Counted from the stretch's first letter, positions 3,878 to 51,031 are shown. The stretch: DNA of 64,000 nucleotides from Moniliella sp. 'wahieum' (GCA_003971905.1 RSEE01000033.1:558001-622000), one strand, 5' to 3'. Notes: a model not told the origin generated them from the letters alone. Numbers and translations: made by a program.

Positions 3878-6800
3878 ATGTGTGAACAAGCGCGATACTG
3901 GACACCAACCGGTCGCGATCCGCCACCGATTGGCACCGACAACGAGGAACTCATGATGCTTTGCGCCGAAGCGCACCTGGGTTCAAGAAGACGAACGACA
4001 TCGATGTCGTTAAAGAGAGAGATCAACAGAGCTATACACGACAGAGCCGAGTGGCTTGGATGGAAGGACGAACCTACGCTATCACGACAAACTGGGTTCG
4101 ACGGGCTACGAATTTTGTGGTGCAAAACATCCACCAAATGGAAACTCAACCCAACGCAACTTTGGGGGCACCTACAGGCGCAGCCTCGCGACCCGAGTAC
4201 GACCTTTACAGATCACTACGCGAGTCTCCCACCAAGAATATCAAGTGGCCTGATCTGAACAAAGACCCGTCCGCCTACAGCGCTTGGGAAGACGAATTTC
4301 TCTTCGCGATAACAGATGCCCACCCCCACGCAAGCGACGTCGTCCAGAATGGTCGCAGCTCCCGTACTTCACCGAGGACCTCGACAGACGCTTGCACAAC
4401 CTTCTTAGGGAAGCCATGCGTCAACCCTCTTCCGGACGATCCGCACCCACCACGAAATATCATGCACCCAGGACACGCTGAACATGCTGCGTCAGCGGTA
4501 TGGATATACGCCTACCGCAAACAGAGGGCCTCTACTCATTCGCTACTTTTCGGCCGACCAAGGAAACCGATCGGGTCGAGACTACCTCGACTACATGGAA
4601 GAGATCAGTGCAAGCCTGACGCGAGCGGGCATCCCACTTACGGAAGAGCAGGAACGCACTGGGATCCTACTCGGCTTACGCGACATGAGCATTCGCCAGC
4701 GTGAAGAGCGCTCGAGTCTAGACAAGTTACGGCAGGCCGTGATGGACATACCAGCCGCCACGTATCCCGGTGGAGAAAGGAAGAGAAACGGAGGCAAGCC
4801 GGTCAACGGAGGAACGCCTTGGACTCGACCCGACAGCGGGGGACGACCCACCAGCGGGGGAAAAAACTCCAGCGGGGGCAAAGCCGGCGACGACAACCTC
4901 GCGGACACAAAGACCAAGGGGCAAGACCGCACCAACCAACCCTGGCGCAGCGCGACGTCTAATAAACCTGTTGTCCCTCCGCGCAACCCAGGCCGAGCCA
5001 ACGCTCACGTCGCTCAGAGAGCGAGCTCTCCGAGTCTGAAGTGATTGACGTTGATGCGGGCACAGCTGACTACTAGGAACTCGGGGGCGAAATGCGAATC
5101 ATCCGGGCATTATATGACAGTGGGGCATTCCCATCCATTTGGAAAGACAAATCCGTCTTCACATCCATGACCCCTTGCGACGACGAGATAGAGGTTGCTA
5201 ACGGGACACATGTAAAGGCGGAAGGACGAGGCACGGCCACAATCCGTATCCGATGCTTAGGAGGACACCAAATGGAGATAAAACTCCCAACAGCCTATAC
5301 ATGCCCCGTTTCAGCCGAAATCTCGTCAGTGTAGCACACCTGTCGAACACCGGAAATCGATCATACTTCGCCCCACACCAGAAGGGTATCTGGCTTGGTA
5401 ACCCAGGATCCACCCTACGAAAAGTAACCGGCAGTGACTATCAATTCACGATCTTACACAACCCGCGAACGCACCCACACCCCTGCGGGCCATGGCGACC
5501 AAACCGATCAAACCGGCCGACCCACCCTCAACCCAAACTCCCTCGCAGCATCCCTGGCCCTGGACCACGTCTCTAAAGCCCACAAACGCTGGAACCACGC
5601 AGCCATCGACCTCCTCCCCTGGCTTACACGATCGGAAACCGCAGGCCTCCGCGTCACAGCCAAGCATATCTCCTCTGTCGTTCAGAGTGGGATTGCCCAA
5701 CATGCGCGGTGGCACTAGCGACAGCATCGCCCCATCCGAGCCGGGACCGCCTCCGATCCAAAAGACCTTTCGAGGTCTCCACGTCGACGAGTAGTAGACC
5801 TCCCCCGGGTAACCGGCATGGGGCACGGATACGCCCTCGTCGCCGTTGATGACTTCACGCGGTACGTCTTCACCACAGCGATCCCGACAAAGGGCGCTGC
5901 AACGAAGGAACTGCGGAACCTCATATTGCGGGAGCAACGCTACGGCCCGGACAGACTGCTGCGGACTTTGCGCACGGACAACGCCCCCGAATTGACAAGC
6001 GCACTGCAACCTTTTCTGGACGAGCAAGGCATCACGTCAGAACGGACAATCCCGGGGCAGAGTGCTAGCAACGGTGTGGCTGAGCGTGCCATCCGAACCA
6101 TAACGACTCGTGCAAGGCAGTTGCTCTTGGGTACAGGTCTTCCGACGTCGGACTGGTGGGAACACAGCCTCCACGCTGCGTGCTTCACCCAAAACCAAAT
6201 GCCACTCAAAACATCCGGGGAAGACAACAAATCGCGATTTGAGCGATACAAAGGCCACGCAACTCGTTACCGATGCAACCCTTTGGCCGCCTTGCATACC
6301 TCCATCTGCCCGAGTCACGCCGCGAGCACAAGCTCAGCGCGGGCAGAGGAAGGTATGCTGGTAGGATACCACCATCAGCGCGGATCAAAGGGATGGCTCT
6401 TCGCCACATACCAACCATCCCTGGGTACCTTCACCTACCGCTGGTCGAAACCGTACAAATGGGGCAACGCCATCTACCCCATCTCCACCCCGACCACTTC
6501 CACCGACATCACCCAAATCACCTCAAATTAAAATCGACAGTGAAAAGACGCTAACCCTACTCCGCCAGCCGCGGCAGCACCCATGCCCCGAACGCCGCCA
6601 CACCCCAGACACCCGCTCCCACCACCACCCCCTCCGCGCCGCTACCCCCTCCGCCAGCGCACCACCCGCACCTCCCTCGACCTGCACACACTCCCAATCG
6701 CTGACGACCCCACCGACACGACCTACCATGCTCGTGCTGCAGCCGCCACGCCCCACTGCGCCGCACCAGAGATCGGCATCGCCCGCCCCCTACCTGACAC

Positions 6801-8507
6801 ATCCGCCCCCCCGTTTGCCGACACAGTTCAACCTCCCGAATACGCCGCCATGACTGCTCTCAGCGCACCCATCCACCCGGACACGGTTCAGCTCACCAAG
6901 GATGGCGTACCCCTCGCTCCCAAGACGCTCAAGGGTCTCGAGACTCACCCCTCCTTTGCCATGGTCAAGCAGGCTATGGCCGACGAGGTGGCCACACTCG
7001 CGCGATACGGCACCTACGAGGCTACGTACCCACCACCGGGTGCACAAATCCTCATAGGACTATGGCGCATCACCACAAAGACGGACGCCGAGGGCCGGTT
7101 CCTGCGCCACCGCGCGCGCTTTGTCGCGGGCGGACACCAACAATCGGCCGAGACTTGGGGCCAGACGTTCGCACCATCGGTGCGCACACCTGCCATCCTG
7201 ACCCTCGTCGTGCTGGCCGAGAAGTATAAGTTTGGCCTCTTCTCGGCGGACGTCAATGCAGCGTACCTGAACGCCCCCCTCGAAGAAGCAGTCTACATCC
7301 GCCCACCCCCCTACTTCCCCGAAGCGGGTGGTCGCGTGTGGCGTCTCAAGAAGAGTCTATACGGGCTACATCAGAGCGGAGCAAACTGGGCACGATACAT
7401 CCGGAACCTGCTGCGTGACAAGCTCGGCTTCACGCAAAGCTTGACCGAGCCCTGCTTGTTCGTGCGCGCTGCACCACCGGGTGAGCAGATCCTCCTGGCG
7501 GTCCACACCGACGATCTGCTCTCGCATGCAAGTCACACCAAAAGTACGAGGAGTTTATGGCCGAGATAAACACACACATTGATGTTCGTGGTAACGGTCC
7601 CCTTCACTACCACCTGGGATGCCAATACGATCGGATCGGTGGGGAGCTGTACCTGAGCCAACCAAAGTTCATCGAGGAAGTGGTGGCAAAGCACCACATC
7701 AAAGCCCCGTGGATCCGGACTCTCCCACATCCCGTACGGATGATACCGCCCCGTGCCGACCCTGAACCCCCATCCCTCCCAGCCTTGCGCAAGGCATATC
7801 AGGGGAAGATCGGATCGGGACTGTGGGCTGCACGAATGGGCCGGCCTGACTCCCTCTTCGCTATCACGGCCCTCAGCAGAGCCGCTGCCGACCCATCGCA
7901 GCAGCATCATCAAGCAGTCGATGACTTCCTTCGCTACCTGTACCATACTCGAGGAAAGGGCCTGAGGTTGACCCCAACATCAGATGCACCGGCCATTGCG
8001 CTGTATACAGATTCCGACTTGGCGGGAGATCCCATCCAGGCACGCTCCACATCTGGATGCCTACTGATGGTGTACGGTGTGCCGGTGTCGTGGCGATCCA
8101 TTCTTCAGCCGAAGAGCGTTACCAGTACCGCCGCCGCCGAATATACGGCAGGATATGATGGACTGGTTGACGCCAACTATGTCAAGAACATCATGATCGA
8201 GCTTGGGGCCATCGGCGAGGGTACACCCATTCATTGGTATTGCGACAATAAGTCTGTCGTCGATCTCGCCCACAAATTTGGCAGCACCGGCAAGCTCCGA
8301 GAGCTGAAGATCCGGTACCACAATGTACGGCAACACGTGGACTCGGGCGAGGCCATACTTGTACACATCCCCGGCGAAAGGAACCCAGCGGACGTCCTCA
8401 CCAAGCCTCTCGGCCGTCCCGCCCTGACAAGCCATCTTGCTCAACTCCGCGTCGAGGAGATGGATCCAGTCCACATGACTGGGCCCTCCGGTCAGCGGGG
8501 GTGTTGA
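3878..8507 (+). CDS. Copia gag-pol polyprotein (frameshifted in this assembly)
   Basis: Protease LYDSGA; HHCC (HKRWNH..CPTC); integrase VDDFTRY..LRTDNAPE..SNGVAERAIRT; RT RARFVAGG, DVNAAYLNA, LKKSLYGLHQSG, VHTDDLL; RNase H YTDSDLAG..STAAAEY..CDNKS..NPADVLTKPL. The stop lies inside the 3' LTR. Confidence 0.93.
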
Positions 8508-13672: not shown

Positions 13673-14868
13673 TTATCCCACCCGTTTTGCCCCGCGCACA
13701 GCCGCGCCAAAGCAGCTGAGGACCAAATCGCGCACCCCCTCTGGCGAGGTCGTGTCGCGAATCTTGAAGCGCACGCCCAATGCGACCTGGACATCGCGAA
13801 GCATCTGCACCGCCATAGGAGTGATCTGACTGCCCAACCGCACGCGCGACGCGTCCTCGGGGGCACAAGCCATGAGCAGCAACACCATTGCCTGGTGCGC
13901 CCGGTCTACGCATCCGCGCCCAGCGATTTCTGTCAGCAGCCCACGCGCGGCACGGGTGCCCACTTCTTCGGGCGTCTGTAGACCTTCGGTCGAGGGATCG
14001 GCAAGCGTCTCGGCGCAGTGCAGTGCGCCCGTCGTGGAAGTCGAAACAAGAGAAAGGGCGTACCCGGGCGATCTGGTTACAGGTCAGCACCGAATCGAAC
14101 AACTGAATTCAAAGAACTGCATACGCACTTGCCGCTGTCGTCCCCTTGTATACATCGGAAAAGAGGTAGAGATCCGGCACTAGCGGTTCAGCACCCCGCG
14201 GCTCGACTCGATCAATCGATTGGCCAGTTGAGGGCTGACCGCGCCGCCGACGCCACACCGCGAATCCGACGCACTTTGCCGGCGGACGTAAAGTCGAGCG
14301 TGCGGAGCAACGCCTGCTGCGCTTCCGCCGGCCGATGTCGATCCCGACGAAGGCAGCAAGGGGCAGGTGAAGGAAACTTCGCCCCCGCCGAGAGGAGGGT
14401 ACCCACGCTTGACAATCCTTAGCTCCAAGTTGGAGGCAGTCGAGCTAGTGGAGGGAGGAAGAAATAGTTGCAAGTGAGGAAGCGTGACAGTGCGCAACAA
14501 GTCAGCACCGAGCGAATCGGAAGCGGTTGTGACCCCGGTGAGAGTGAGGTGGACTTCCCGCTTAGCAAAAGGGCAAGAGGGATGATCCACTCGAGGTACC
14601 ACGAAATCGACTTCTCCACGGGACATCATGTGTAATTTTCCCGCCCCGCACGACACCCGGACGGAAAAAAATAGAAGTACCTGTATACCCAATCTCAATT
14701 TTGGATCCATTGGTGATCTTGTCCAACAGACGCAGGAAGGAGGCCTCTGGGGCGGTGAGGCCGGGCGAGACAGAGCTGGAGCGGATCCCATCGATGCGCA
14801 CAGCCCGCCAGAGAGCACGGCAAGGGCAAGACGCTGCCGGAGGAATGCTGCGCCCTGAATTTGAGCAT
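13673..14868 (-). CDS. RCL1: RNA 3'-terminal phosphate cyclase-like protein (18S rRNA processing)
   Basis: LRQRLALAVLSG, PGLTAPEASFLRLLDKITNGSKIEIGYTGT, KRGYPPLGGGEV, GKVRRIRGVA, GCVDRAHQ..LLLM. Confidence 0.92.
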
Positions 14869-15314
14869 GCGCGAGGCCGCCGCCTCGGTTGCCTCGGAAA
14901 GCGCTCGGTTTTCGCTTCTCCCCATGGCGAGATGAGGTGGATGGTCGTTGTCGGGGGCGAGGGATCAGCAAGCGCTAAGCGGAGCGGCGCGAGAAAAAAA
15001 AGACAGGCCAGGCCGTTCGGTGCAATGGGAAACGCGACTACTTAATTCATTCCGCCAGCCGCTGCTCTTGTTTCACTAGTCACTAGTGAGGGCTGACGCA
15101 TCGACGGTTTCAACATTCACTTGCCGTCGTTGCGAGTTGCTGGCCAAGCTATACCGCTGCTTTCATTCCGCCCCGAGCGGAAGGGGGCACCTTCGCATTC
15201 GACTGGGGGCTGGCCCGGCCTGCCTGAGCTGGCTGAGCCTCGCTCTCACCCCTCCTTCTACTGCTAACCCACCCCGCCCCGCCAACGAGCTTGTCCGATC
15301 GACTCTTACCCAGC

Positions 15315-23690: not shown

Positions 23691-24886
23691 TGCTTGACGC
23701 GCGCTTGACGATACCAATGAGCTGTGCCACGAAGCCTGCTAAGACCATGTTTCACAACTGGACCGAACTACTGTGGCTGACGCGCTGACAGCTGACACAA
23801 GCCCCGTTAACGTGTAACGTGTAACGTTTAACTCAGTACTCACTAGCTACTCACTAGCTGGAGAAACGCCTATGCGCTCTTATATCGTGGCTGATGTGAG
23901 CGCTATATATGCATGTCAGGCCTTTTTGTCGAGTCGGGATCCACTCGGGCTATCCATCCAATTCGGAGGGAGAGGCGGGCGGGAGCGAGCATGTCCGGCC
24001 CTGCTGGCAACGCCATTGGCATCCTAAAATCTAGGGGACCAAAAACTGCAGCCACGCCGGGGATGAGGGAATTGTCACCTGCCGCGCGCGCTGGGGGAAT
24101 GGAGTGATGAGTACGCTGGGGCGCGGCAGGCCCATACAGAAGGTGGCGGCTGTAGAAGCGACTTGTTGAGAGAGAAGGGGCAGAGGCGGTGGCGGTAGAC
24201 TGGAGCGCGGGCGCACCTGTGCTGGGACCAACACGCGGGAGAGCGAGGACACGAGCTTGGGCCGGCGTGCCCAGGCGTGCTGCTAACCCGCTGCCTTCGA
24301 TTCGGACCGACGTGGAGCGGCGAGGCGGCGGCGGACACACTGGCGCCAGGCTCACGTGGCACCGATCGACACGGCATGCACCGTGCCACCCACCGCTCCC
24401 CGCCGGTCACCTGACCAGCTTGGCCAGGGTGGATCTGCGGGCAGCCCGCATGCCACAGCGCCCGTGGCGGCGCTGTGCCCCTGCGCCTGCTGTGCCCCCG
24501 CGCCGGGTGGCCGCCAACCCAACATGCACACCGGCAGTGCGCAGCAACACTTGCCCTGCGCCCCAGCCACGCCCAAGTGGTGTGGTGCCGGGGCAGTGGT
24601 GACGCTACCGCTGATCGCGACGCGTGATTCTGCCAGGAGGTGGCCCACTGGAGCACAACAGGCGCCGCGCCGCGGCCTGCCGGGCAGGCGGCCGCCACGA
24701 GCCGCTTCGCCCTGGGCATCTCTGCTGCCCACGGCGACGACTGCCATCACCATCACCACCACCACCACCACCGCCCCCACCTTCTCCCCCCCCCCTCTCT
24801 TCCCATCGCTCTCTACCGTCGCTGCTGTGCTGTGCGAGCCCGCGTTCGTGTATCCGTTCGTCCTCGCCGCCGCCGCCTAGCCCGCC

Positions 24887-27800
24887 ATGTCAGGTTGGCC
24901 CCTTGAGTTCATCTACCGCCTTCCTCCCCGCGCGCCCACCACATCGCTCGGGGACTGGATGGCCCAGAACGTGACCGACAACGGCACGGCCACCACTTTG
25001 CTTGACTGCCTCTGCTCTTCCACACGCCCCGCCCTCTGGAGCCCTGACCTCGCCCGCCCACCCCTCGACCATCGCAGCCTCAAGAATTTCGTCCAGTCCT
25101 TCACCCTCCCAGTCTCGTCCCGCTCCCGTAGCAGGCCTCTCCAGCCTAATGATCGCGTCATGCTGCTCCTGCCCACCGGCCCTGAAAATGCGTTGATGCT
25201 CATGTCCATTGCCACCTACCATACCTGCGCCCCGCTCAACGCCGCTTGCACTGCTGGTGAACTGCGCGACGATGCCGTTCGTCTCCGTGCCCGCGCAGTC
25301 GTCACTACCCGTGACAGCTTGGAGCGTCTCGGTTGCTACGAGCTCTATGCTGAAGAAAACATGGAGATCATTGTTGTCGACTTCAAGACCTCGGGCCCCG
25401 CTGGCTACTTTGACATGGCAGTGCTCGAAGGTGATGATTTGGTTCCATACCAGCAGGCTCTCAGCCGCCGTGCCCACCATCTACTCTTACAGACTATTCT
25501 CTTGTCCTTCATACTTCTGGTACGTCGGGCAAGAAGAAAGTTGTACCCTACTCTCTGCGTCACATGATCGTAGGCACCTGCTGTGTCTTCTCCTGGGAAC
25601 TCAAGCCCGAATCAGTCAACAGTATGTCCCCATCCTTCCCCCCCCCACCCTCCTCCCCATTTTGTCTGGAGCTGAACTGACTTGCCGCTTCGCAGTGAAC
25701 ATGATGCCGCTCTTCATGTTGGCGGTATTGTACGCAATCTGTGGTCCCTCTCTTTTCCAATGGGTCCGCCATCATGTGTGCTGGATTTGACGCAACGACA
25801 TGGTGGAAACTTGCGGGTCAATTGGGTGCGACGTGGTACTACGCTGCCCCCCCATGCACCATGCCATCCTGGGCTCTAAGCCCGAGGGCACAGTTGCCTC
25901 GCGCGACACTAAGATCAAAATGATCTGCAATGCCGCCGGTGGTCTACTTCCTCTTTGGCTGTGAAGCTCAAGGAGAACTTTGGTGACTGCGCTGTCCTCC
26001 CTTCCTACGGCATGACCGAGTGGTACGTGGCTCTCTCTTCTTTTTCCATGCTATATATGACATGTGATTCCCTGGTTGGTAGCATGCCCATCGCCTCCCC
26101 GCCGACTGATTACCAGTTGGACCGCCCTGGTTGTTCGGGTGTAGCCTGCGGCCCTGGTCGTCAATCCGTGACCCCTTCAACCTGAGAACGAGCGGCCATT
26201 GGACAGACAGGTGCCGTATGCGTGCGTGGCCTGCCCACCTTCAGCGGTTACGAAACCGACCCCGATGGTCCATTGATGCCTCTTCCTTCTCCTCTGAGGG
26301 CTGGTTTGACTCGGGTGACATGGGACACATGGGACGCTGATGGCTATCTGTTCATCACGGGTAGGTCAAAAGAGATCATTAACAAGGGTGGTGAGGTTAT
26401 CTCCCCCTTTGAGGTCGAAGAGGCCATCACACAAGCCACCACCGGCCGGGTCAAAGACACACTCTGTTTTTCGATCGAGCACGACGTTCTCCAAGAAACG
26501 ATTGGTGTGGTGATTGTTCCTACACCGAACGAACCCGGGTGGGCTTGTCCGAGCTGCGAACATGCTGAGGAACTATCTCCATCATCCAAATGGCCCTTTG
26601 CGATTGTCTACATGGACGATCTACCCAAGAATCAGGCGGGTAAACCTTTGCGTATCAAGCTCGCCAGTCGCCTGGGCATTGGACCCTTGACCGATAGCGT
26701 CCCTGCCCTGCAACGGCACTTTGAGGCGAAGGCACCGGGAAAGAGGTTCCTCTTTCCGAACCGATCCCTTGCCAACTGGTCAATGTGGATGTGCGGGCAG
26801 TGGAGCGGGCGTGCTACCGTATCCCTGGCATTGTTGAGGCGGCTGTGCGTGTGCGCAGGGACGGTGCTCCTGAAGCATTCATCTATGTTGAGGAGGACAT
26901 GCCATACGATGCAGCTGACATTGATCGTGCCTTGGCACAAGTGCTGGATGGCCGTGGTGCCTAATCCACTGCATGTCTTCCGCCAGCCTCTCGCAAAGAC
27001 ACCTCAAGGCCAGATTGACTTTGACACTATGGAGGCCGAAGTGCGCGCTCAGAACGCCCAAGACATGTCGAGCACGGGCATCATTGTCCGTGATATTATC
27101 GGCAAATTGCTCAACACGGATCCTGGGAGCATCACGGCTGAGTCCGACTTCTTCCTACTCGGTGGAAACTCCTCTTGCTAGGCCGTCTCGTAGCCCAGAT
27201 CCGCAAGGAGACGGGCGTGTCGCTTGAGGTGTCGTCCCTCTTTACCAACTCAACGATTGAGGCGATCGCCGGTATGATTGAGGAGAGACGGGCGGTTCAG
27301 ATGCCGATGAGGAAGACGAGGGCTATTACGATGAGAAGACGGGCTTTAGTTCCAACTTCCTTTCTGCCACCGCTACGATGATGATGAGGAAGGGTACCTG
27401 AGCTCACACGGCTATCAACCTCGGTCCCAGACCCATCCGTGGGTCATGTTCATCCAAATCATCCCACTCCTCTTCTTCTACCCGTTCAAGGCCGCCTGGA
27501 CTTGGACTGTCCTACTCCACGGCCTTGCATTCTCTGCGTATTACATCGACGACAACTTTTGGGAACGTGTGGGCGTCCTGCTCTTGTCTTTGTTTGTCGC
27601 TCGTCTCACCTCTCGGATCATCTGCCCGGTCACAGCCATTGCCTTCAAGTGGCTTGTGATTGGCCGATACCGCCCAGGAAAGTATCCTATGTGGTGCAAC
27701 TATCATCTGCGTTGGTGGATTGTTAACCAGTCCCTCACCACGGCTGGTAAGGGTCTGTTCAATCTCACCCCCGAGTTACGCAAGGTCTATTTCCGGCTCC

Positions 27801-29977
27801 TGGGTGCTTCCATCGGCAAGAATGTCAAGATCGACAAGTTTGCCAAATTGGGCGAATATGATCTGCTTACGATTCATGATGGTGCACAGATCGACAAATC
27901 GGTCGTCCGTGGTTTCTGCGTTGAGCGTGACGGATACTTCCGCCTGGAACCGATCATCATTGGGCGGGACTGCATCGTCAACACCTACACTCAGATTTCC
28001 CCCGGTGCTCGCTTGGCCAACGGGACGGTTTGGGGTCCTCAGTCGAGTAGCCACGAGGAGCCCTCGATGGACAGCTATGCCGCATACAACCGCGAGGCGG
28101 TGCCAAAGCCGCATTGGCTGTTGGTGGTATTCCTTGGCTTGCCCCTCAAACTGATTGTCTGGGTGCTGTGCTATCTCCCTTGGTTTTCAGCCTTGTTCAT
28201 GCTGCTTTCAACACCGTTTTTGTTCAACAAGCACGATTCGCTCAAGGGCGTTATTGCCTGGTTCTCCTTCCCTCAGCGAATTGGATGGCACTACGTTGCG
28301 CGCATTGTGCGCAATGGCATGCCGGCCATGTCGAATATCATTCTCGGGATCCTTATCAAGCGTATCTGCGGTGTCAACAAGGAGGGCTCGATGCAGAATG
28401 CGACGCAGCTCTCTCTTTGGCGTCGCTGGATTCAATCCGAGTTCCTCTCTCAACCCCAGATCCGCCGCTCTATGTCTATTTTGGGGACTCACTACGAGAT
28501 GACCTCTGTCATCTATCGTGCTATGGGAGCCAAGATTGGAAAACGAGTGTACTGGCCTGGATCAGGCATCTATTGCCCGGACCCAGAGCTGCTTGAGATT
28601 GGGGACGATGTGGTGTTTGGGTCTCGTTCGGAGGTCTTCACCTCAGACTCGATTGGATGGGCTAAAGTGCGCGTCGCTCGGGGCGCCATGATTGCAGACC
28701 GTGTCGTGCTGTCCCCTGGTGTGACGGTGGGGAAGCAGTGTGTGATGGGTTCAGGCGCTCTGGCGCGCAGGAACGGGTACTACGAGCCGCTGTCGGTCTG
28801 GATGGGCTCCAAGCATGGCGAAGCTGTTAGCTTTGGCAAGTCTGCCCCCTCCGAGGAGACGGGGGAGAATGCCACCATCACGCCATTCGGGCGGGCGTTT
28901 TACAAGCGCCAAGCCAATTTCTTTGTTTTCCCCTACCCGATGCTCGTGCTCATCAATATCATTATGAGCGTCGTCACTTCGCTCTACTGGGCCTCGCCTG
29001 CTGTCGCCGCTATCACCTTCCTCAACTTTCTCCGCATACAGTTTGAGACCAAGGCCGACGGTCTGTTTGGCGACCACTGGTACCGCCCAGCGCTCGTGTA
29101 CATTTACATCGCGCTCGCCTTTGTGATTATTATGGGGGGGCAGATGCTGATTGCATTTGCGTGGGTGATCGGAACCAAGTGGGCGATCATCGGTCGGCGG
29201 CGCGAAGGACGGTACGATTGGGACAAGTCATCGTACTGCCAGCGCTGGCAGCTTCATCTCGTGCTCCAGAAACTGTTGGGCAAGGGCTTTGGTGGGCACA
29301 TTATTGGTTGCATTTCCGGCACGGTGTACGCGGTCTGGTACCTTCGCGCCATGGGCGGCCAGGTGGGTCGGGACTGTTCGATTTGGGCGGGTGGAAAGCC
29401 ATCGCTTCAGTTTACCGAACCAGAGTTGGTCACGTTTGGGGATCGGGTCAGCGTCGACGATTGCTCGGTTGTCGCTCACATCAATTCTCGTGGTCGCTTT
29501 TCCCTCAACGCACTTCGGATCGGGGATGGTTGTGCGATGCGCACGGGCTCCCGTCTGCTTTCGGGGGCTAACATGGAACCTCGCAGCATGCTCCTCGAGC
29601 ATACGCTAGTTGCGTCGGGTGAGATTGCTGAGGCGGGGATGGTATATGCTGGTTGGCCTGCTCGCCAGCTACGGGTACGCAAGCCCAAGCCTGCCCCCAC
29701 TGCGTCGTCGGTACCTACCTTGGTAGTTGATGGAGGCTTTTCTCAGAGCAAGGGTTTTGGTCTCTCGCCCATACCCTCGGCCTTGCCTTCGATGAGTTCC
29801 AGTCCCTTTGCCTCCAAGGATGCATTCAGTTCGCAGGATGCATTTGCTCCCATCTCGGCTCCTGCTGTGCCCTACGGGCACCAGCCTTCCACCTCCTACA
29901 ATGGTTCTTTGGCCGATTCCTACGGCCATGGAGGGTACCCGTACCAAACGCCCATGCAACCCCATTCAGCATTTTAA
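24887..29977 (+). CDS. Membrane NRPS-like enzyme: A domain - T domain - three TM/left-handed beta-helix repeats (Pls / polymalate-synthetase architecture)
   Basis: A: HTSGTSGKKKVVP, MPLFHVGG, PSYGMTE, GWFDSGDMG, LFITGRSKEIINKGGE, LPKNQAGK. T: DFFLLGGNS. C-terminal 843-aa ORF has three R.[LM]G..[IV]G repeats with hexapeptide-like strands and TM pairs. No C, TE or R domain seen. Introns ~25622-25695 and ~26023-26082. Confidence 0.88.
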
Positions 29978-38979: not shown

Positions 38980-41452
38980 CGTCCCTAGGCCGCTGGAGAC
39001 GATGGGGGGGCAGCGTGCTTGCCAGCCCCGGCCCCGTCCCTCCAACCCGCCCGGCCGCCAGATCTGAGAAGGTGCACTGGCGGAAATGCGCCGCGCTGGT
39101 TCCGCCGGTACCCATTGCACCGACCCCTGCCTGCTCGCCATGCAGGCAGATGAGCCGCACCCGTGCCACACCCCCACAATTTAATTGCGCACACGCCGCC
39201 GCATGGTGAGAATTACTGCTGAAGTGGCGCTCCTCTGGCTCCTCCAGCGCATCTGACGCATCAACACTGCCGGCTCTGAACATGCTGCTGTTGTGCTTCG
39301 CAGCATGTCGCAGACATAGATCGCCATGTGCGCCCGTTGAGGGAACTGACCAATTTCCCAGGTGAGGTCGAGCTCTGGTCTCCATCTTTTTTCTGCCTTT
39401 TCGCCTCTCACTGCTCGCAGGAGAGACGGCGACGCGTGTGAGCACTAGTCTGGTGTTCTGGAGCTCTGTATTGATAAACGGGCTCCTCCTCCTGTGCCTT
39501 TCTTGTCCATTCGCGTGGCCGCTTCCAAGCTGGCCCCTTTCTGGCACGATATCCCCAAGTCACTGCTTTATTTGTCGCTGTCCATGTACACCACACAGTG
39601 CAAAAGCTTTCGCTTTTCTATAGTGAGCTGACGCATTGAAGAAAGGTTATAGGCCACCGCGCTCACCCCCCTGGTCTATTACGAGCTCATATAACCTCCC
39701 CCCTCCAAGTAGACCTTCAATCTCGTCGACTGCCAATATTCCCCTTGGGATAAGCAAGGCAAAAGAAGAGAAAAGAGAGGGGAGAATGGGATGTAACTGA
39801 GTGTGATGCCGAAAGCCGTTCCGTGGCGATCAACCAGAAGGATTCGGTGTTGGAGTTTTCTAACTTTCGTTTACGGACGTGATGTGGTAGTCCTAGCCGC
39901 TTGGGCCAAAGTGGTTTAGTTGGTGGATAGGACTTTGATGAAACGGCTGTATATCAGGATGAGGTGGCTGGCTTTGAGATCAAGCATCAAAAGGGAAAAA
40001 AGGGAGTTTCGAGGCCTGGGTGGATGTCCAAGCGTCCTATAAGAGGGTAGGGAAGAATGAAGGGATTATCTATGGTATGGTCGAAAAAAGGTATCTCTCT
40101 CGTTTGAGTGACAAAGGCGGGGCGGGACACTCGCCAAAAACGTTTGCGCTTCCCCCTGCTTCCCCTGTCGAGATTGCCTCCCCTCATAAGGATCGTATAG
40201 CGCGTGTATACATAAACATACGGAGAGTGTATGTGACTGATCGACATATTAGTACGACGAATTGGTGTTGACATGATACCATTTGTACTGCATCCGCTTA
40301 TTCAAGGTGTGGGCACGTTGGCTGTGGGGAGTAAAGGAGTGGTCAGGTAATAAGGAGGAAGCAGCAGAAAGTGCAATATATATGAACCAAGTTGGAAGGT
40401 GCAGAGGGAGGCTTCAAGCCGACAGGTGGTAGATTACCACACGTGCACTGCATATCAACCTCGAAATGGAATGAGAAGCATTGAGGACAAGGCACGATTA
40501 TCGAGTGGCCAGCGCATCATGCATCAGGCTGAGCCCTTACTTAGGCCTTACGCGTTGCGCGTTACGCCGCAGGAACGCCGCCGGAGAAGGTAGAAACCCC
40601 GGCGGAAGAGACTGGCACTGTGCGGCGGCTTTCCCGCCCAGCGGACCGCATGGCGGCGACAACAAGGACAGCGGCACAGAGCCAGAGCGGGTTTAGAAGA
40701 GTTTGAATCGATGGGGTGGAGCAGTGATGTTGGCGCTCAGTCCTCCGCCACACACGGGCGCTGCGGCCATTGGGAAGAGGCTGGCAAGGCCCACAGCAAA
40801 GCCTCACTAGCGCCTCAATACCCCTAACCGCGGAAACCCCTGTAAGGCCGTAGGGCCTAATAAGGCCAATAAGGTCTAAGGCCTAAGGCCTACAGCCCAA
40901 CTCCTAACGGGGAACCTCTAAGGCGTTCGACGCCGTGCATCATGCATCACGCCTCAGTAGGGCCTCATAACACGTCACTATCCTATAGGCACTGCAGTCA
41001 CTTCGTCACTGACTAGAGTGACCAGTTTCCCTGTCACTCTCCCCGTTCCTGCGGTGCCGGCGTTGCTGCAGGTTGGTGTCCGTGCGATTGATGTCACATG
41101 GTCACATGCATTGCATATCCATGTCATTAGCATTGCTAATGGGACGGACCGTGGAAGGGGGCAGATGGCCCGCCGCTGCCTGTGCAAGGCAGTCTTCTTG
41201 AGACACGCCTTGGCTGTGTCCTGGTGCGCGCCGGTCAAAACGCTCAGGTTCACTTTCAAGTCAAACGTTGAACGCAGCTCCAGGGCACTGTGCTAACCCG
41301 CCCCATCCAACCCGTTGGGGCTCAAATTCTACATTTGGTGCAAAAAGGTTTGGCGCCTAGCGCTTATCGCCGACTGCCGCCTTAAAACATCCTCCCCCCC
41401 GCCCATCTTACACCCCAACCACCACCTCTGGCTCTTCCTCTACCTACCAACC

Positions 41453-43105
41453 ATGGCTCTCGCTCGCAACGCACGTATGACCCAGATCGAGTGGCTTGCC
41501 GGCCTCAGCCCGCTCGGTCTGGAAGCGACTGCAGCCAACCCTAATAAGCGCAAGACGGCCATTGTCTGCACCATCGGCCCCAAGAGCAACAATGTGCCTA
41601 CCCTCAGGGCCCTCCGCGATGCTGGCATGAACGTGGTCCGTCTCAATGCCTCGCACGGCACCCACGAATACTTCCAATCGGTCATTGACAATGCCCGCGA
41701 GGTTGAGGCCAAGTACCCTGGGCGCCCTCTGGCTATTGCGCTTGACACCAAGGGCCCCGAGATGCGCACCGGCATGATGGTGAACGGCGAGGACGCCCCT
41801 ATTGAGGGCCGGCCACGTCTTCTTTGTTACCACTGACGAGGCTTACGCCGAAAAGTCGAGTCCCGAGTACCTCTTCATTGACTACAAGAACTTGCCCCAG
41901 AAGATCGAGGTGGGCAAGAAGATCTACATTGACGATGGTATTCTCGCTCTTGAGGTGCTCGGGATTGAGTCGCCCACGATGGTCAAGGTTCGCTCGGTCA
42001 ATGCCGGTGTCCTATCGAACAAGAAGGGTCAACCTACCAATGACGGAGATTGACCTCCCCGCCTTGTCGCCCAAGGACGAGGCCGATATTCGTTTCGCTG
42101 TCGCGCAAAACCTGGACTACGTCTTTGCCTCCTTCATCCGTACCCCCGACGACGTGAAGCACATCCGCAAGGTCCTTGGAGAGGATGGCGCCCACATCAA
42201 GATCATTTCCAAAATTGAGTCTCACCAGGGCGTGCAGAATTTCACCGACATTCTCCAAGAGACTGATGGCATTATGGTCGCTCGCGGTGATCTGGGTATC
42301 GAGATCCCGGCCGAGGCTGTTGCTGTGAGCCAGGTACGTATTTTCCTCTGCTATCCTCTTCATGCGCTCGGTTCTGACGATCGATATGCCTTCGCCGGGT
42401 AGAAAATGATGATTGCCCAATGCAATCTTGCGGGCAAACCCGTCATCTGTGCGACTCAAATGCTCGAGTCTATGATCAAGAACAACCGCCCTACCCGTGC
42501 TGAGGTGTCCGATGTGTTTAACGCTGTGCTCGATGGCGCTGACGCGTGATGCTTTCGGGTGAGACGGCCAAGGGGTTGTACCCTGTAGAGGCGGTCACAA
42601 CTATGGCTCAGACGTCTCGTCTTGCTGAATCGGCGATCGCATACCCCGCCCTCTTCAACGAAATGCGTCAAGTGGTTCAGACGCCGACGCACACTGAGGA
42701 GACAGTTGCCATGGCCGCGGTGGCTGCCTCGCTTGAGCAGAACGCCGGGGCGATCCTACTCATGTCCACCTCGGGCACACGGCGCGTCTGGTTGCCAAGT
42801 ACCGCCCGCCGTGCCCCGTGCTGGTTATCACCCGCAACGAGCAGACCGTGCGTGCGTGCCACCTGTACCGGCACTTACCCCTTCCTCTACGCCGACGCAC
42901 GCCCCTCCGAGGGCAAGTGGCAACAGGATGTAGACAACCGTATAAAGTTTGGCTTTGCGAGGCTCTTGAGCTCGGCATTCTCAAGCCCGGCGCCACCGTT
43001 GTTGCCCTTCAGGGTTGGCGTGCGGGTAAGGGTGCAACCAACTCGATGCGCATCCTTTCCGTTCCCACCCACGAGTCGGGCCTCGAGCTCGAGGCAGCGC
43101 ACTAA
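41453..43105 (+). CDS. CDC19: Pyruvate kinase
   Basis: [65 protein letters not shown]; intron ~42334-42402. Confidence 0.97.
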
Positions 43106-49020: not shown

Positions 49021-49879
49021 GCGCCATGTATTGGCTCCAAGGTAGTTGCCACTGTGCACTTCAACCGTTTACCAGGGTCGCTTGTGGCCCGTGTGTGCAT
49101 CGGAATGTGGGAGTGCATACGTTGCGAGTGCGTTGACCCATGGGCCCTGTAGTCCACACCGCTGCACACTGGTACTTAGTGGCACTGCCCCCACCAACTC
49201 GCGCCTCTGATGGTGCTGTCCACTTCGGAGCGAGCATCACCGGTCGCTGGACAGTTATCTCGAACGGCTCGAGGCCTCGGGCCTCTGGTGCCACGCCATG
49301 GCACTGTCATGGTGTATACCCAGCAGTCCGCACACAAATGGGACGGTTTTCTGTCTGGAGGTCAGGAGGTATGGGTGGGCGTGTGTACGTAGCCTCGGAG
49401 GATGTGGCGATGATGTGCTGGTGGACGTGAGGCTGGGATGGGACATTTGGCCTTGTCCTGGTTAGCGATGGAGGGCCGAATGGTTGATGATCGATGACGG
49501 AATGGTGGGTGGTTGGTCGGAGGGCGACCGGTGGCCGTCCCCCGGTCAGGCGGTCAGGTGACCACTGGTCTGCAGTGCGCTCGCTGGTCAGATTCATGAT
49601 GCATGAGGGGCAATGGATGATGCTTTCGGAGCAGGCTGGCTCTGCGCTCCCCAGCTGGTTGCACACCAAGCGATCAGCGATCAGCCCATCGCTCATCGCT
49701 CTGCCCGGGCGGAAAAAGAAGGTCGGCGGCGGAATGCGGCGGCGGAAGACGCGGTGCAGGAGGCGAGTGCGTCGAAAATAAAGTAGGCGAGAGGGAGCGC
49801 TGAGACGAGGCTGGTTGCGCTTTCGCTCCAGCCGTCCCCGCGCCGATCTTCTGCGCCGCCACCGTCCGCCTCCCCCACT

Positions 49880-51031
49880 ATGGCTGCTCCCGCGTCCCCC
49901 TTCCCGGACATCCACACTCCTGGATCTGCCCCGGGAGCCCCTCACCGAGCAGCTCCATCTCCCGCCCCAGTCCGACCGCCAGAACGCCGAAGAGGGCGCC
50001 ACCGCGCCCTATGGATTCTTCACCCCCGTCATCGCCGCCGCCGGGCGTCTGCATGCCGCCCGCAAGCACCTTGACTTGCCCAACCCCGGCTCGGTTGAAC
50101 ACCTTCAGCGCGAGGTCAAGGCCACCCACCTGACCAACCACTTTTTCGATGGCGCGCGCGCTGACTTGACCAAGGTGTTTTCGGTGAACCCTGTCTTCCA
50201 AGTCACGCATGCCTTTAGCATGCCCAACGCGCCTAATCCCCCCAGCTACAACTTTGGCGCTGTTTTGGGTGACAATCGCCACTTCTTGCAGGGTGGAGTG
50301 GACGACTCGGGGTCGGTGACCATGCGTGCAAACCGTGGATGGGGCTTTGGCCACATTTCTAAAATCCAGGCCCAGCTCGTCAGCGGCTCGGGGTCGTTTG
50401 TGCAACTCGAGCATGACTACCAAGGCTCGGACCACACCCTGAACATCAAAGCCCTCAACCCATCTATCACCAATGGCACGGGCATTTTCATGGGAGCTAC
50501 CTTCAGTCTCTTACCCGTAATTTTGCATTTGGCCTCGAGACTGTCGTTCAACGGCCGTCGCCTGAGGTTCAGGAGGCTACCACGGGCTACCACGCCAAAC
50601 TCACTGGCGACAAAAAGGACTGGATCGCCACCGTATCGGCCCAAGGGATGGGGGTGGTGCAAGCCTCCTACTGGCAAAAGCTGGCGGAACGAGTGGATGT
50701 AGCAGCAGACTTGCTGCTGCTTGCGGTAGGCCCCAAACGGGAAGCGACCGCTACCCTGGGTGCCAAGTGGGACTTCCACATGTCCACCCTCCGCACTCAG
50801 ATTGACTCGACGGGTAAGCTGGCTACCCAGATCGAACAGCGCCTTGCCCCCACCTTTGCCTTCACGGTTGGCGGAGAGATTGATCACGCCAAGGGTGCTT
50901 CGCGCTTTGGGGTCGGGCTCAACATCGAGTCGGGTACGGAAATTGACCCGAATGCACCGATGCCGACGCCTCCCTCGCTTCCCTCTAATGGGCTGACCTG
51001 GGCGGGGACAAGACGGATGAACATGGTTTGA
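49880..51031 (+). CDS. TOM40: Mitochondrial outer membrane translocase Tom40
   Basis: LPNPGSVEHLQREVK, FFDGARADLTK, FQVTHAFSM, QLEHDYQGSD, LRTQIDSTGK, GEIDH..FG.GL. Confidence 0.95.

Follow-up and report, generated by a model that had tools for sequence, protein, structure and literature searches.

Described polymer synthetases and the Moniliella locus

Polymalate is a sought-after biodegradable polyanion, and to our knowledge the synthetase responsible for it has been studied only in Aureobasidium. In passages of three papers, the enzyme of Aureobasidium melanogenum, PMAS (Wang et al. 2020, QHD40385.1), is described as a membrane protein resembling nonribosomal peptide synthetases (NRPS), which combines an adenylation-like (A) domain, a carrier (T) domain, and a condensation-like (C) domain with six transmembrane (TM) helices and has no thioesterase (TE) domain; the gene measures 5,049 bp, and its deletion abolished polymalate and left growth unaffected (PMC11286673, PMC11905612, PMC9210645). 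Here we describe a gene at positions 24887 to 29977 of a stretch of 64,000 nucleotides from Moniliella sp. 'wahieum' (GCA_003971905.1, RSEE01000033.1:558001-622000), hereafter called the window. The gene is an ordinary, probably intact member of one pan-fungal family of proteins of about 1,600 residues, which shares with PMAS the A-like, T, and C-like domains, the six TM helices, and the lack of a TE domain. The reading that we favor, with confidence and doubt about evenly balanced, is that of a single-module, membrane-embedded synthetase of a malate-type polyester, which would adenylate L-malate or a very similar hydroxy-dicarboxylic acid.

The Aureobasidium member of the family (P0381) is very probably the published PMAS, an identity that we draw from layout and length, the PMAS gene corresponding to about 1,682 residues versus 1,688 to 1,690 residues in the cluster of P0381. 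This protein is collinear with the basidiomycete proteins and shares with them an A domain of the oxalyl-coenzyme A (CoA) synthetase type, an identical pocket signature, and a subthreshold match to TIGR02353, the profile of the Pls/PosA terminal domain; it differs from them in being only about 40% identical, and the basidiomycete proteins form a separate, well-supported clade. A likeness to PMAS had been suggested in the original prediction, made from the sequence of the window alone, and the review passages cited above give the same domain arrangement.

The membrane NRPS of the Pls/PosA type, whose layout had also been recognized in the original prediction, likewise present an A and a T domain, six TM helices, and three tandem soluble domains, with no C or TE domain, and TIGR02353 picks up the homology of the C-terminal part (E value of 1e-50), though with a score below the cutoff of this profile. 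Different from these enzymes, the A domain encoded in the window is of the carboxylic-acid CoA-ligase type and not lysine activating, the TIGR02353 score is less than half of the cutoff, and an ester would be expected as the product rather than an amide. Epls of Epichloe represents a different branch of the same architecture, for which the source passages report a lysine pocket and homologues occurring mainly in Clavicipitaceae (PMC7179176).

Among solved structures, the oxalyl-CoA synthetases (AtAAE3, 5ie0 and 5ie3; LsOCS, 6qjz) and the malonyl-CoA synthetase MatB are the best relatives of the A domain, and the window family keeps the core motifs of the ANL superfamily together with the gating His and the catalytic Lys. 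The differences lie in the replacement of Ser289 and His319 with Gly and Pro, in three further pocket residues that are smaller, in the putative acceptor, which would be a fused carrier and not free CoA, and in the context of a membrane protein of about 1,600 residues. Each soluble domain of the membrane part, in turn, has the fold of the hexapeptide O-acyltransferases (maltose and galactoside O-acetyltransferases, WcaF, and serine acetyltransferase), with a left-handed beta-helix and an N-terminal helical cap, and the family is expected to share their chemistry, in which a hydroxyl receives the acyl group of a pantetheine thioester. Unlike those enzymes, the window family fuses three copies interleaved with pairs of membrane helices, the donor is presumably an acyl group bound to the carrier and not acetyl-CoA, and the identity is 14 to 20%.

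Gene model and domain organization

The gene model was obtained with a frameshift- and intron-aware dynamic program that aligned the Violaceomyces orthologue (P0001) to the window DNA. It consists of three exons separated by two GT..AG introns, with an in-frame TAG (24878 to 24880) directly before the ATG, and the predicted full protein is a single module of about 1,650 residues. The features are as follows.

24887..29977 (+), whole gene, from the ATG at 24887 to the TAA at 29975-29977
24887..25621 (+), exon 1, N-terminal region and start of the A domain, including the P-loop TSGTSGKKK
25622..25695 (+), intron 1, 74 nt, GTATGT...CAG, phase 1; splicing gives ESVN-M-NMMPLF as in P0001
25696..26022 (+), exon 2, core of the A domain with the FHVGG, NAAGG, and YGMTE motifs
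26023..26082 (+), intron 2, 60 nt, GTACGT...TAG, phase 2; splicing gives YGMTE-C-MPIASPP
26083..29977 (+), exon 3, remainder of the A domain, T domain, acidic linker, membrane/left-handed beta-helix (LbH) domain, and tail
25139..26644 (+), adenylation (ANL) domain of the oxalyl/malonyl-CoA-synthetase type, signature V-G / A-G / G-M / P, catalytic Lys in AGKP
27086..27279 (+), T (phosphopantetheine carrier) domain, with the frameshift at 27170 falling on the serine codon of GGNS
25439..27358 (+), patch with all 18 frameshift events, read as local consensus errors
27437..27658 (+), TM helices 1 and 2 (model helices 30-63 and 70-103)
27659..28099 (+), soluble domain C1, helical cap and left-handed beta-helix, with FRLLGASIGKNV at 27791-27826
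28115..28369 (+), TM helices 3 and 4 (model helices 256-286 and 308-340)
28376..28864 (+), soluble domain C2, with YRAMGAKIGKRV at 28514-28549, a Hexapep Pfam match, and the maltose/galactoside O-acetyltransferase fold (Z score of 12.6)
28934..29191 (+), TM helices 5 and 6 (model helices 529-565 and 579-614)
29192..29701 (+), soluble domain C3, with LRAMGGQVGRDC at 29342-29377 and the family-invariant H710, N712, G715, and F717
29702..29974 (+), Ser/Pro/Gly-rich tail of about 90 residues, predicted disordered (predicted local distance difference test score [pLDDT] of about 30)

The three-exon model, together with homologues that carry both halves in one protein, agrees with the single gene of A domain, T domain, and three TM/beta-helix repeats that had been proposed. 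All the motifs on which that proposal was based could be found on the plus strand: the P-loop stretch HTSGTSGKKKVVP in the frame at 25438-25680, ATWYYAAP within the frame at 25705-25923, PSYGMTE within that at 25913-26185, and the carrier motif DFFLLGGNS at the end of that at 26186-27181. One of them, MPLFHVGG, is not contiguous in the raw sequence, where MPLF and HVGG occupy separate frames, and it is a composite across a one-base frameshift. The three segments of the GxxIGxxV type lie in one uninterrupted open reading frame (ORF) of 875 codons (27350-29977, +). At the 3' end, the part of the tail beyond about position 29737 is without equivalent in P0001, and it may be either genuine or the cover of an unrecognized intron or stop.

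The broken A and T pieces of the raw sequence give weak matches to PF00501 and PF00550, and the 875-residue ORF gives a Hexapep match in Pfam. In the intact orthologues P0001, UMAG_00790 of Ustilago maydis (P0431), and P0381, the Pfam scan found PF00501, PF00550, and PF00132 (Hexapep), with PF13193 in addition in P0001 and P0431 and no other family; in particular, no condensation, thioesterase, or reductase family was found in these three proteins, as had been expected for the gene.

A domain type and acyl pocket

For the A domain of P0001, the best solved relatives are LsOCS of grass pea (6qjz, E value of 4.4e-49) and AtAAE3 of Arabidopsis (5ie0, 1.9e-45), followed by a further oxalate-CoA ligase and then by malonyl-CoA synthetases at about 1e-32, whereas among the listed chains named as amino-acid adenylation domains the best one (6ulw) reaches only 4.2e-16. 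The same ranking was obtained for P0381, with 6qjz at 6.5e-60 and 5ie0 at 5.4e-56 ahead of the malonyl-CoA synthetases. The preference of the original prediction for an oxalyl-CoA-ligase type over an amino-acid type is borne out by these values; the residues specific to oxalate, as detailed below, are absent. The motif equivalent to A4 is FHVGG. In the NRPS specificity code, the alpha-amino group is bound by an Asp at the position where CoA ligases have a His.

The oxalate pocket of AAE3 is formed, according to passages of the source, by Val215-His216, Cys288-Ser289, Ala313-Met314, His319, and Lys500, and Ser289 and His319 are reported there to be conserved only among oxalyl-CoA synthetases (PMC8905533). 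We mapped these positions by HMMER alignment and on a MAFFT alignment of 46 sequences, and we could notice that the family presents Val-Gly, Ala-Gly, Gly-Met, Pro, and Lys, corresponding to the substitutions His216 to Gly, Cys288 to Ala, Ser289 to Gly, Ala313 to Gly, and His319 to Pro. Since all five changes are to smaller residues, the alignment suggests a pocket bigger than that for oxalate and a correspondingly larger substrate, and since Ser289 and His319 are both absent, oxalate itself is unlikely to be the substrate.

The pocket signature is identical in all 21 basidiomycete rows, in the Aureobasidium protein, in the read-through of the window, and in most of the other rows. The exceptions, at one or two positions each, are represented by Dactylellina, three chytrids, Halteromyces, and Erysiphe; four further rows show conservative Val/Ile changes, the row Ophiocordyceps_b is incomplete, and two divergent paralogues in the pocket alignment have no catalytic Lys. 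The serine that carries the phosphopantetheine is present in 46 of 46 rows. For proteins of this family, annotations like 'acetyl-CoA synthetase-like', 'oxalate--CoA ligase', or 'peroxisomal-CoA synthetase' are misleading.

P0138 of Verticillium albo-atrum and P0161 and P0288 of Epichloe form a divergent sordariomycete subgroup in which the layout and the phosphopantetheine serine are kept, the catalytic Lys is replaced with Gln or Glu, and most of the pocket residues are lost; for P0161 of Epichloe, the search of the PDB gave no match at 1e-15. The subgroup may be a degenerate or repurposed paralogue.

Membrane part

The C-terminal part is an internal triplication, the unit of which comprises two membrane helices and a beta-helix domain. 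The structure of the 875-residue ORF was modeled with AlphaFold2 from an alignment of 39 sequences (pLDDT of 83.1; predicted template modeling score of 0.82, a value that shows only a confident relative placement of the domains). The model presents six long helices (30-63, 70-103, 256-286, 308-340, 529-565, and 579-614), every pair of which is followed by a helical cap and a beta-helix, giving three beta-helix blocks, and its two ends (1-19 and 785-875) are disordered. The repeats are mutually homologous, with a similarity far above chance in the sequence comparison: R1 and R3 are 29.7% identical over 138 residues (E value of 1.3e-9), and the E values are 6e-4 for R2 and R3 and 0.004 for R1 and R2. 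Furthermore, the neighborhoods of the motifs are at least 90% conserved among the 39 aligned sequences.

Comparison of C2 (model residues 343-500) by Foldseek and VIA-align with whole chains of maltose and galactoside O-acetyltransferases gave Z scores of 12.0 to 12.6 and root mean square deviations (rmsd) of 2.5 to 3.3 over 139 to 149 residues, the best being 3igj_A (Z score of 12.6, rmsd of 2.5, 141 of 186 residues); chloramphenicol, streptogramin, and serine acetyltransferases are the next relatives of this fold. A search of the PDB with the sequence of the C-terminal part returned no structure of the Pls type and weak matches to hexapeptide transferases only, and the search of the ESM Atlas returned unnamed Hexapep clusters only. 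The matches to TIGR02353 and to an LbH family that had been proposed as a check were both found in the window ORF, the LbH match being Hexapep of Pfam; TIGR02353 of NCBIfam scores 172.7 bits (E value of 1.2e-50), which is below its curated cutoff. In NCBIfam no other non-ligase profile matches better than TIGR02353, and families of the WcaF kind match as well.

Family distribution and conservation

A search with the 875-residue ORF for longer proteins gave 530 matches, the best 120 of which are all basidiomycete proteins of 1,533 to 2,796 residues with PF00501 in each (120 of 120) and 85 to 93% of the query covered. The top matches, at 76 to 77% identity, are those of Violaceomyces (P0001), Thecaphora, Ceraceosorus, and Tilletia, and the family also includes UMAG_00790, proteins of Malassezia and of Agaricomycetes, and one Aureobasidium protein. 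The 90% cluster of UMAG_00790 contains Sporisorium, Pseudozyma, Moesziomyces, and Testicularia in addition. A HMMER scan of 1.84 billion representatives resulted in 2,337 matches at an E value of 1e-3 or below and 327 at 1e-30 or below, among which the named representatives belong to Dothideomycetes, Leotiomycetes, Sordariomycetes, Pezizomycetes, chytrids, a mucoromycete, and one protist transcriptome. In the original prediction, such a product was not known to be described from a basidiomycete, and we found no published account of one; the gene is not peculiar to this organism, as more than 100 annotated basidiomycete proteins belong to the family. In a search of full-text literature, no mention of UMAG_00790 or um00790 was found.

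P0001 aligns collinearly with P0381, at 40% identity over 1,631 columns, and the same value of 40% is given by the alignment of the C-terminal ORF of the window with P0381. In an unrooted tree of 47 rows (LG+G4, quick search), in which the join of Halteromyces and Artemidia is flagged as a long-branch one, the Basidiomycota form one clade with a Shimodaira-Hasegawa-like approximate likelihood ratio test (SH-aLRT) support of 100, mirroring the species tree. Within it, the Ustilaginomycotina (support of 100), which include the window gene with Tilletia as its nearest relative (80), are sister to the Agaricomycetes (99), and the Aureobasidium protein falls in the ascomycete clade.

The synthetase of U. 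maydis is 86.6, 81.6, 77.9, and 70.3% identical to its counterparts in Thecaphora, Tilletia, Meira, and Malassezia, respectively, and the corresponding values for coatomer beta in the same genera are 83.3, 74.6, 76.6, and 65.7%. To judge from these sequence comparisons, the synthetase is conserved across Ustilaginomycotina at the level of the essential coatomer beta.

Some further observations concern the distribution. The chytrids Geranomyces and Thoreauomyces (two copies) are placed inside the ascomycete clade, and Polychytrium, Nowakowskiella, and Physocladia join the mucoromycete and the protist near the basidiomycete clade, a split placement that would reflect either old paralogy or transfer. 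Neither Pucciniomycotina nor Tremellomycetes are represented among the best 120 of the 530 matches of the synthetase, and in the coatomer beta search both rank just below Ustilaginomycotina; as judged from those best 120 of 530, this hints at loss of the synthetase in the two lineages. Moreover, many homologues of Agaricales (Mycena, Hypsizygus, and Athelia; P0029, P0044 to P0046, P0054, P0057 to P0063, and others) add Pfam matches to RING-type zinc fingers (precomputed PF00097, PF13923, PF13920, and PF13639), none of which occurs on the Ustilaginomycotina proteins.

Proposed function and alternatives

Under the favored reading of a malate-type polyester synthetase, the A domain would adenylate a small carboxylic acid, most probably L-malate, and the acyl group of the resulting acyl-adenylate would then pass to the T domain, bound as a thioester to its phosphopantetheine arm. 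The three beta-helix domains, held to the membrane by the six helices, would probably pack into a pseudo-trimer resembling the trimer of the O-acetyltransferases, whose active sites lie where subunits meet. The domains would use the thioester-bound acyl group to esterify a hydroxyl, which would belong either to a free monomer or to the growing chain. Because the chain would grow untethered, no TE domain would be needed; growth of this kind is what the Pls model of Yamanaka et al. 2008 reportedly proposes. The six helices would then export the polyanionic chain. Our data show the gene structure, the order and fold of the domains, the family membership, and the pocket signature; substrate, ester chemistry, packing, and export are the steps that we infer.

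The same type of enzyme, with an unchanged pocket, is conserved across Basidiomycota, from the model smut U. maydis and the skin yeast Malassezia to mushrooms in cultivation, and it is also present in early-diverging fungi, so that a general fungal synthesis of a polymalate-type polyester, together with its purpose, becomes testable in tractable organisms. The one member studied so far, the probable PMAS of Aureobasidium, makes polymalate; the invariance of the pocket and the housekeeping-level conservation of this widespread, barely studied family are the main points of our analysis.

Several points weigh against this assignment. The accession QHD40385.1 is not among the 15 listed members of the 126 in the P0381 cluster, and the link to PMAS is drawn from described architecture and from gene length, the latter being off by about 6 to 8 codons. 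The basidiomycete proteins are separated from the Aureobasidium protein by an identity of no more than about 40%. The pocket positions come from an oxalate complex, so that a larger substrate may touch other residues. The curated TIGR02353 cutoff of 423.1 bits is missed by the window ORF (172.7 bits), by P0001 (178.8 bits), and by P0381 (199 bits) alike. No report of a basidiomycete producer was found among the papers listed in searches on polymalic acid or polymalate in basidiomycetes, which did not cover subscription journals. Finally, conservation at the level of coatomer contrasts with PMAS being dispensable in Aureobasidium, as described in the passages cited above, and this contrast may indicate a different or additional role.

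An alternative that we consider possible, if rather unlikely, is that the same machinery handles another small acid, for example a hydroxy or dicarboxylic one, and produces a different polyester or O-acylates an acceptor of the membrane or cell wall without polymerizing. The substrate is assigned by homology only, and the Aureobasidium protein is 40% identical; among solved folds, the soluble domains come nearest to O-acetyltransferases that perform single transfers to sugars, serine, and antibiotics; the housekeeping-level conservation would suit a structural role in the cell envelope better than an overflow polymer; and the lack of a literature report of basidiomycete polymalate points the same way. 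Against it, the pocket signature is invariant from the basidiomycetes to Aureobasidium and in most of the other rows, which argues for one substrate across the family, and the tandem-triplicate membrane layout is known, as far as the cited passages describe it, only from the polymerizing enzymes Pls, Epls, and PMAS (PMC11286673, PMC7179176).

More doubtfully still, it is possible to hypothesize that the product of the basidiomycete clade is not the classical secreted polymalate but a polyanionic polyester of a kind not yet described, associated with the cell, or else an acylated polymer of the envelope, and that this product is core to fungal cell biology. If true, this would explain both the slow evolution of the protein, which from Ustilago to Malassezia matches that of coatomer beta, and its occurrence from chytrids to mushrooms.

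A synthetase of poly-amino acids of the epsilon-poly-lysine kind (Pls/Epls/PosA), suggested by the shared overall layout and by TIGR02353 being the top non-ligase match in NCBIfam, is scarcely credible and was rejected on the type of the A domain, as the latter matches acyl-CoA ligases at 4.4e-49 versus 4.2e-16 for an amino-acid adenylation chain, the conserved Phe of FHVGG is followed, by the rule given above, by the His of CoA ligases and not by Asp, the TIGR02353 score stays below half of the cutoff, and Epls homologues, with their lysine pocket, are described in the source passages mainly from Clavicipitaceae (PMC7179176).

Frameshifts in the A-T half

In the alignment of P0001 with the window DNA, 18 frameshift events were identified, all inside 25439-27357, and the flanking parts of the gene (24887-25438 and 27365-29737) are free of them. 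Most of the events (14 of 18) are losses of one base, and longer indels do not occur among them. After frame correction, the patch contains no stop codon, and its read-through is 80.9% identical to P0001 (471 of 582 residues), compared with 76% for the intact half.

Only one public sequencing run, X1, shares words with the locus (share of 0.06), covering parts of 25986-28179. Three short contigs of this run, 95 to 99% alike to the window and with 1 to 9 substitutions per about 220 bases, span 26642-27343 and carry extra bases behind 26734, 26952, 27170, and 27284, which are all four of the predicted frameshift sites that they cover; in particular, the extra C behind 27170 restores the carrier motif GGNSLLLGRL. 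The run also has a contig 86% identical to the membrane domain (27955-28179), with 31 differences in 225 positions, mostly at third codon positions, so that a further relative of the gene, more distant than the first, is present in X1.

As a control, we considered coatomer beta (57084-54072, -), which aligns to SEC26 of Tilletiaria at 73.1% identity and shows six frameshifts in two clusters and one intron over about 3 kb. Furthermore, VDAC (49782-51031, +) lies in two frames whose Pfam coordinates abut and leave no space for an intron, and both pyruvate kinase (41297-42402, +) and RNA 3'-phosphate cyclase (14180-15041, -) are spread over more than one frame. The assembly of the window thus carries patchy indel errors throughout, and any call of a pseudogene in it needs care.

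We are confident that the breaks in the synthetase are patchy errors of the assembly consensus and that the organism itself has an intact gene, because there is no stop, the read-through retains 80.9% identity, the X1 contigs supply the missing bases, and coatomer beta is frameshifted too. The original prediction had treated the breaks as errors to be polished, and the X1 bases, the read-through, and the coatomer beta control support that treatment. Decay of the A-T half into a pseudogene in this strain, with at most the 875-residue membrane/LbH ORF still expressed, is improbable. The restriction of the 18 frameshifts to the A-T half, followed by 2.6 kb of clean ORF, would fit such decay, and the X1 contigs, not being identical to the window, may represent a different strain in which the gene was kept, which leaves some room for a strain-specific pseudogene. 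This is opposed by the absence of stops and by an identity exceeding that of the intact half, by the predominance of single missing bases with no longer indel, by the same kind of clustered frameshifts in the essential coatomer beta, and by exon 1 being clean up to 25438. Decay by repeat-induced point mutation was rejected, as the lesions are indels and not transitions.

Upstream and neighboring sequence

Two motifs, GNGGCKCA (-) and CAGCCAC (+), lie adjacent at 24557-24570, about 320 bp upstream of the ATG; passages on the Aureobasidium PMAS promoter describe both as motifs of the Crz1 type (PMC11286673). CAGCCAC occurs three times in the upstream 1 kb (also at 23887 and 24049) versus 0.31 per kb across the window, and GNGGCKCA occurs once versus 0.41 per kb. 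As the motifs are short and the DNA is GC rich, the pair is a weak lead only.

Farther upstream, at 5719-8507 (+), consecutive ORFs in different frames match an integrase core (rve) and a reverse transcriptase of the Ty1/copia type (RVT_2), and from these matches the region appears to be a retrotransposon copy, either frameshifted or decayed.

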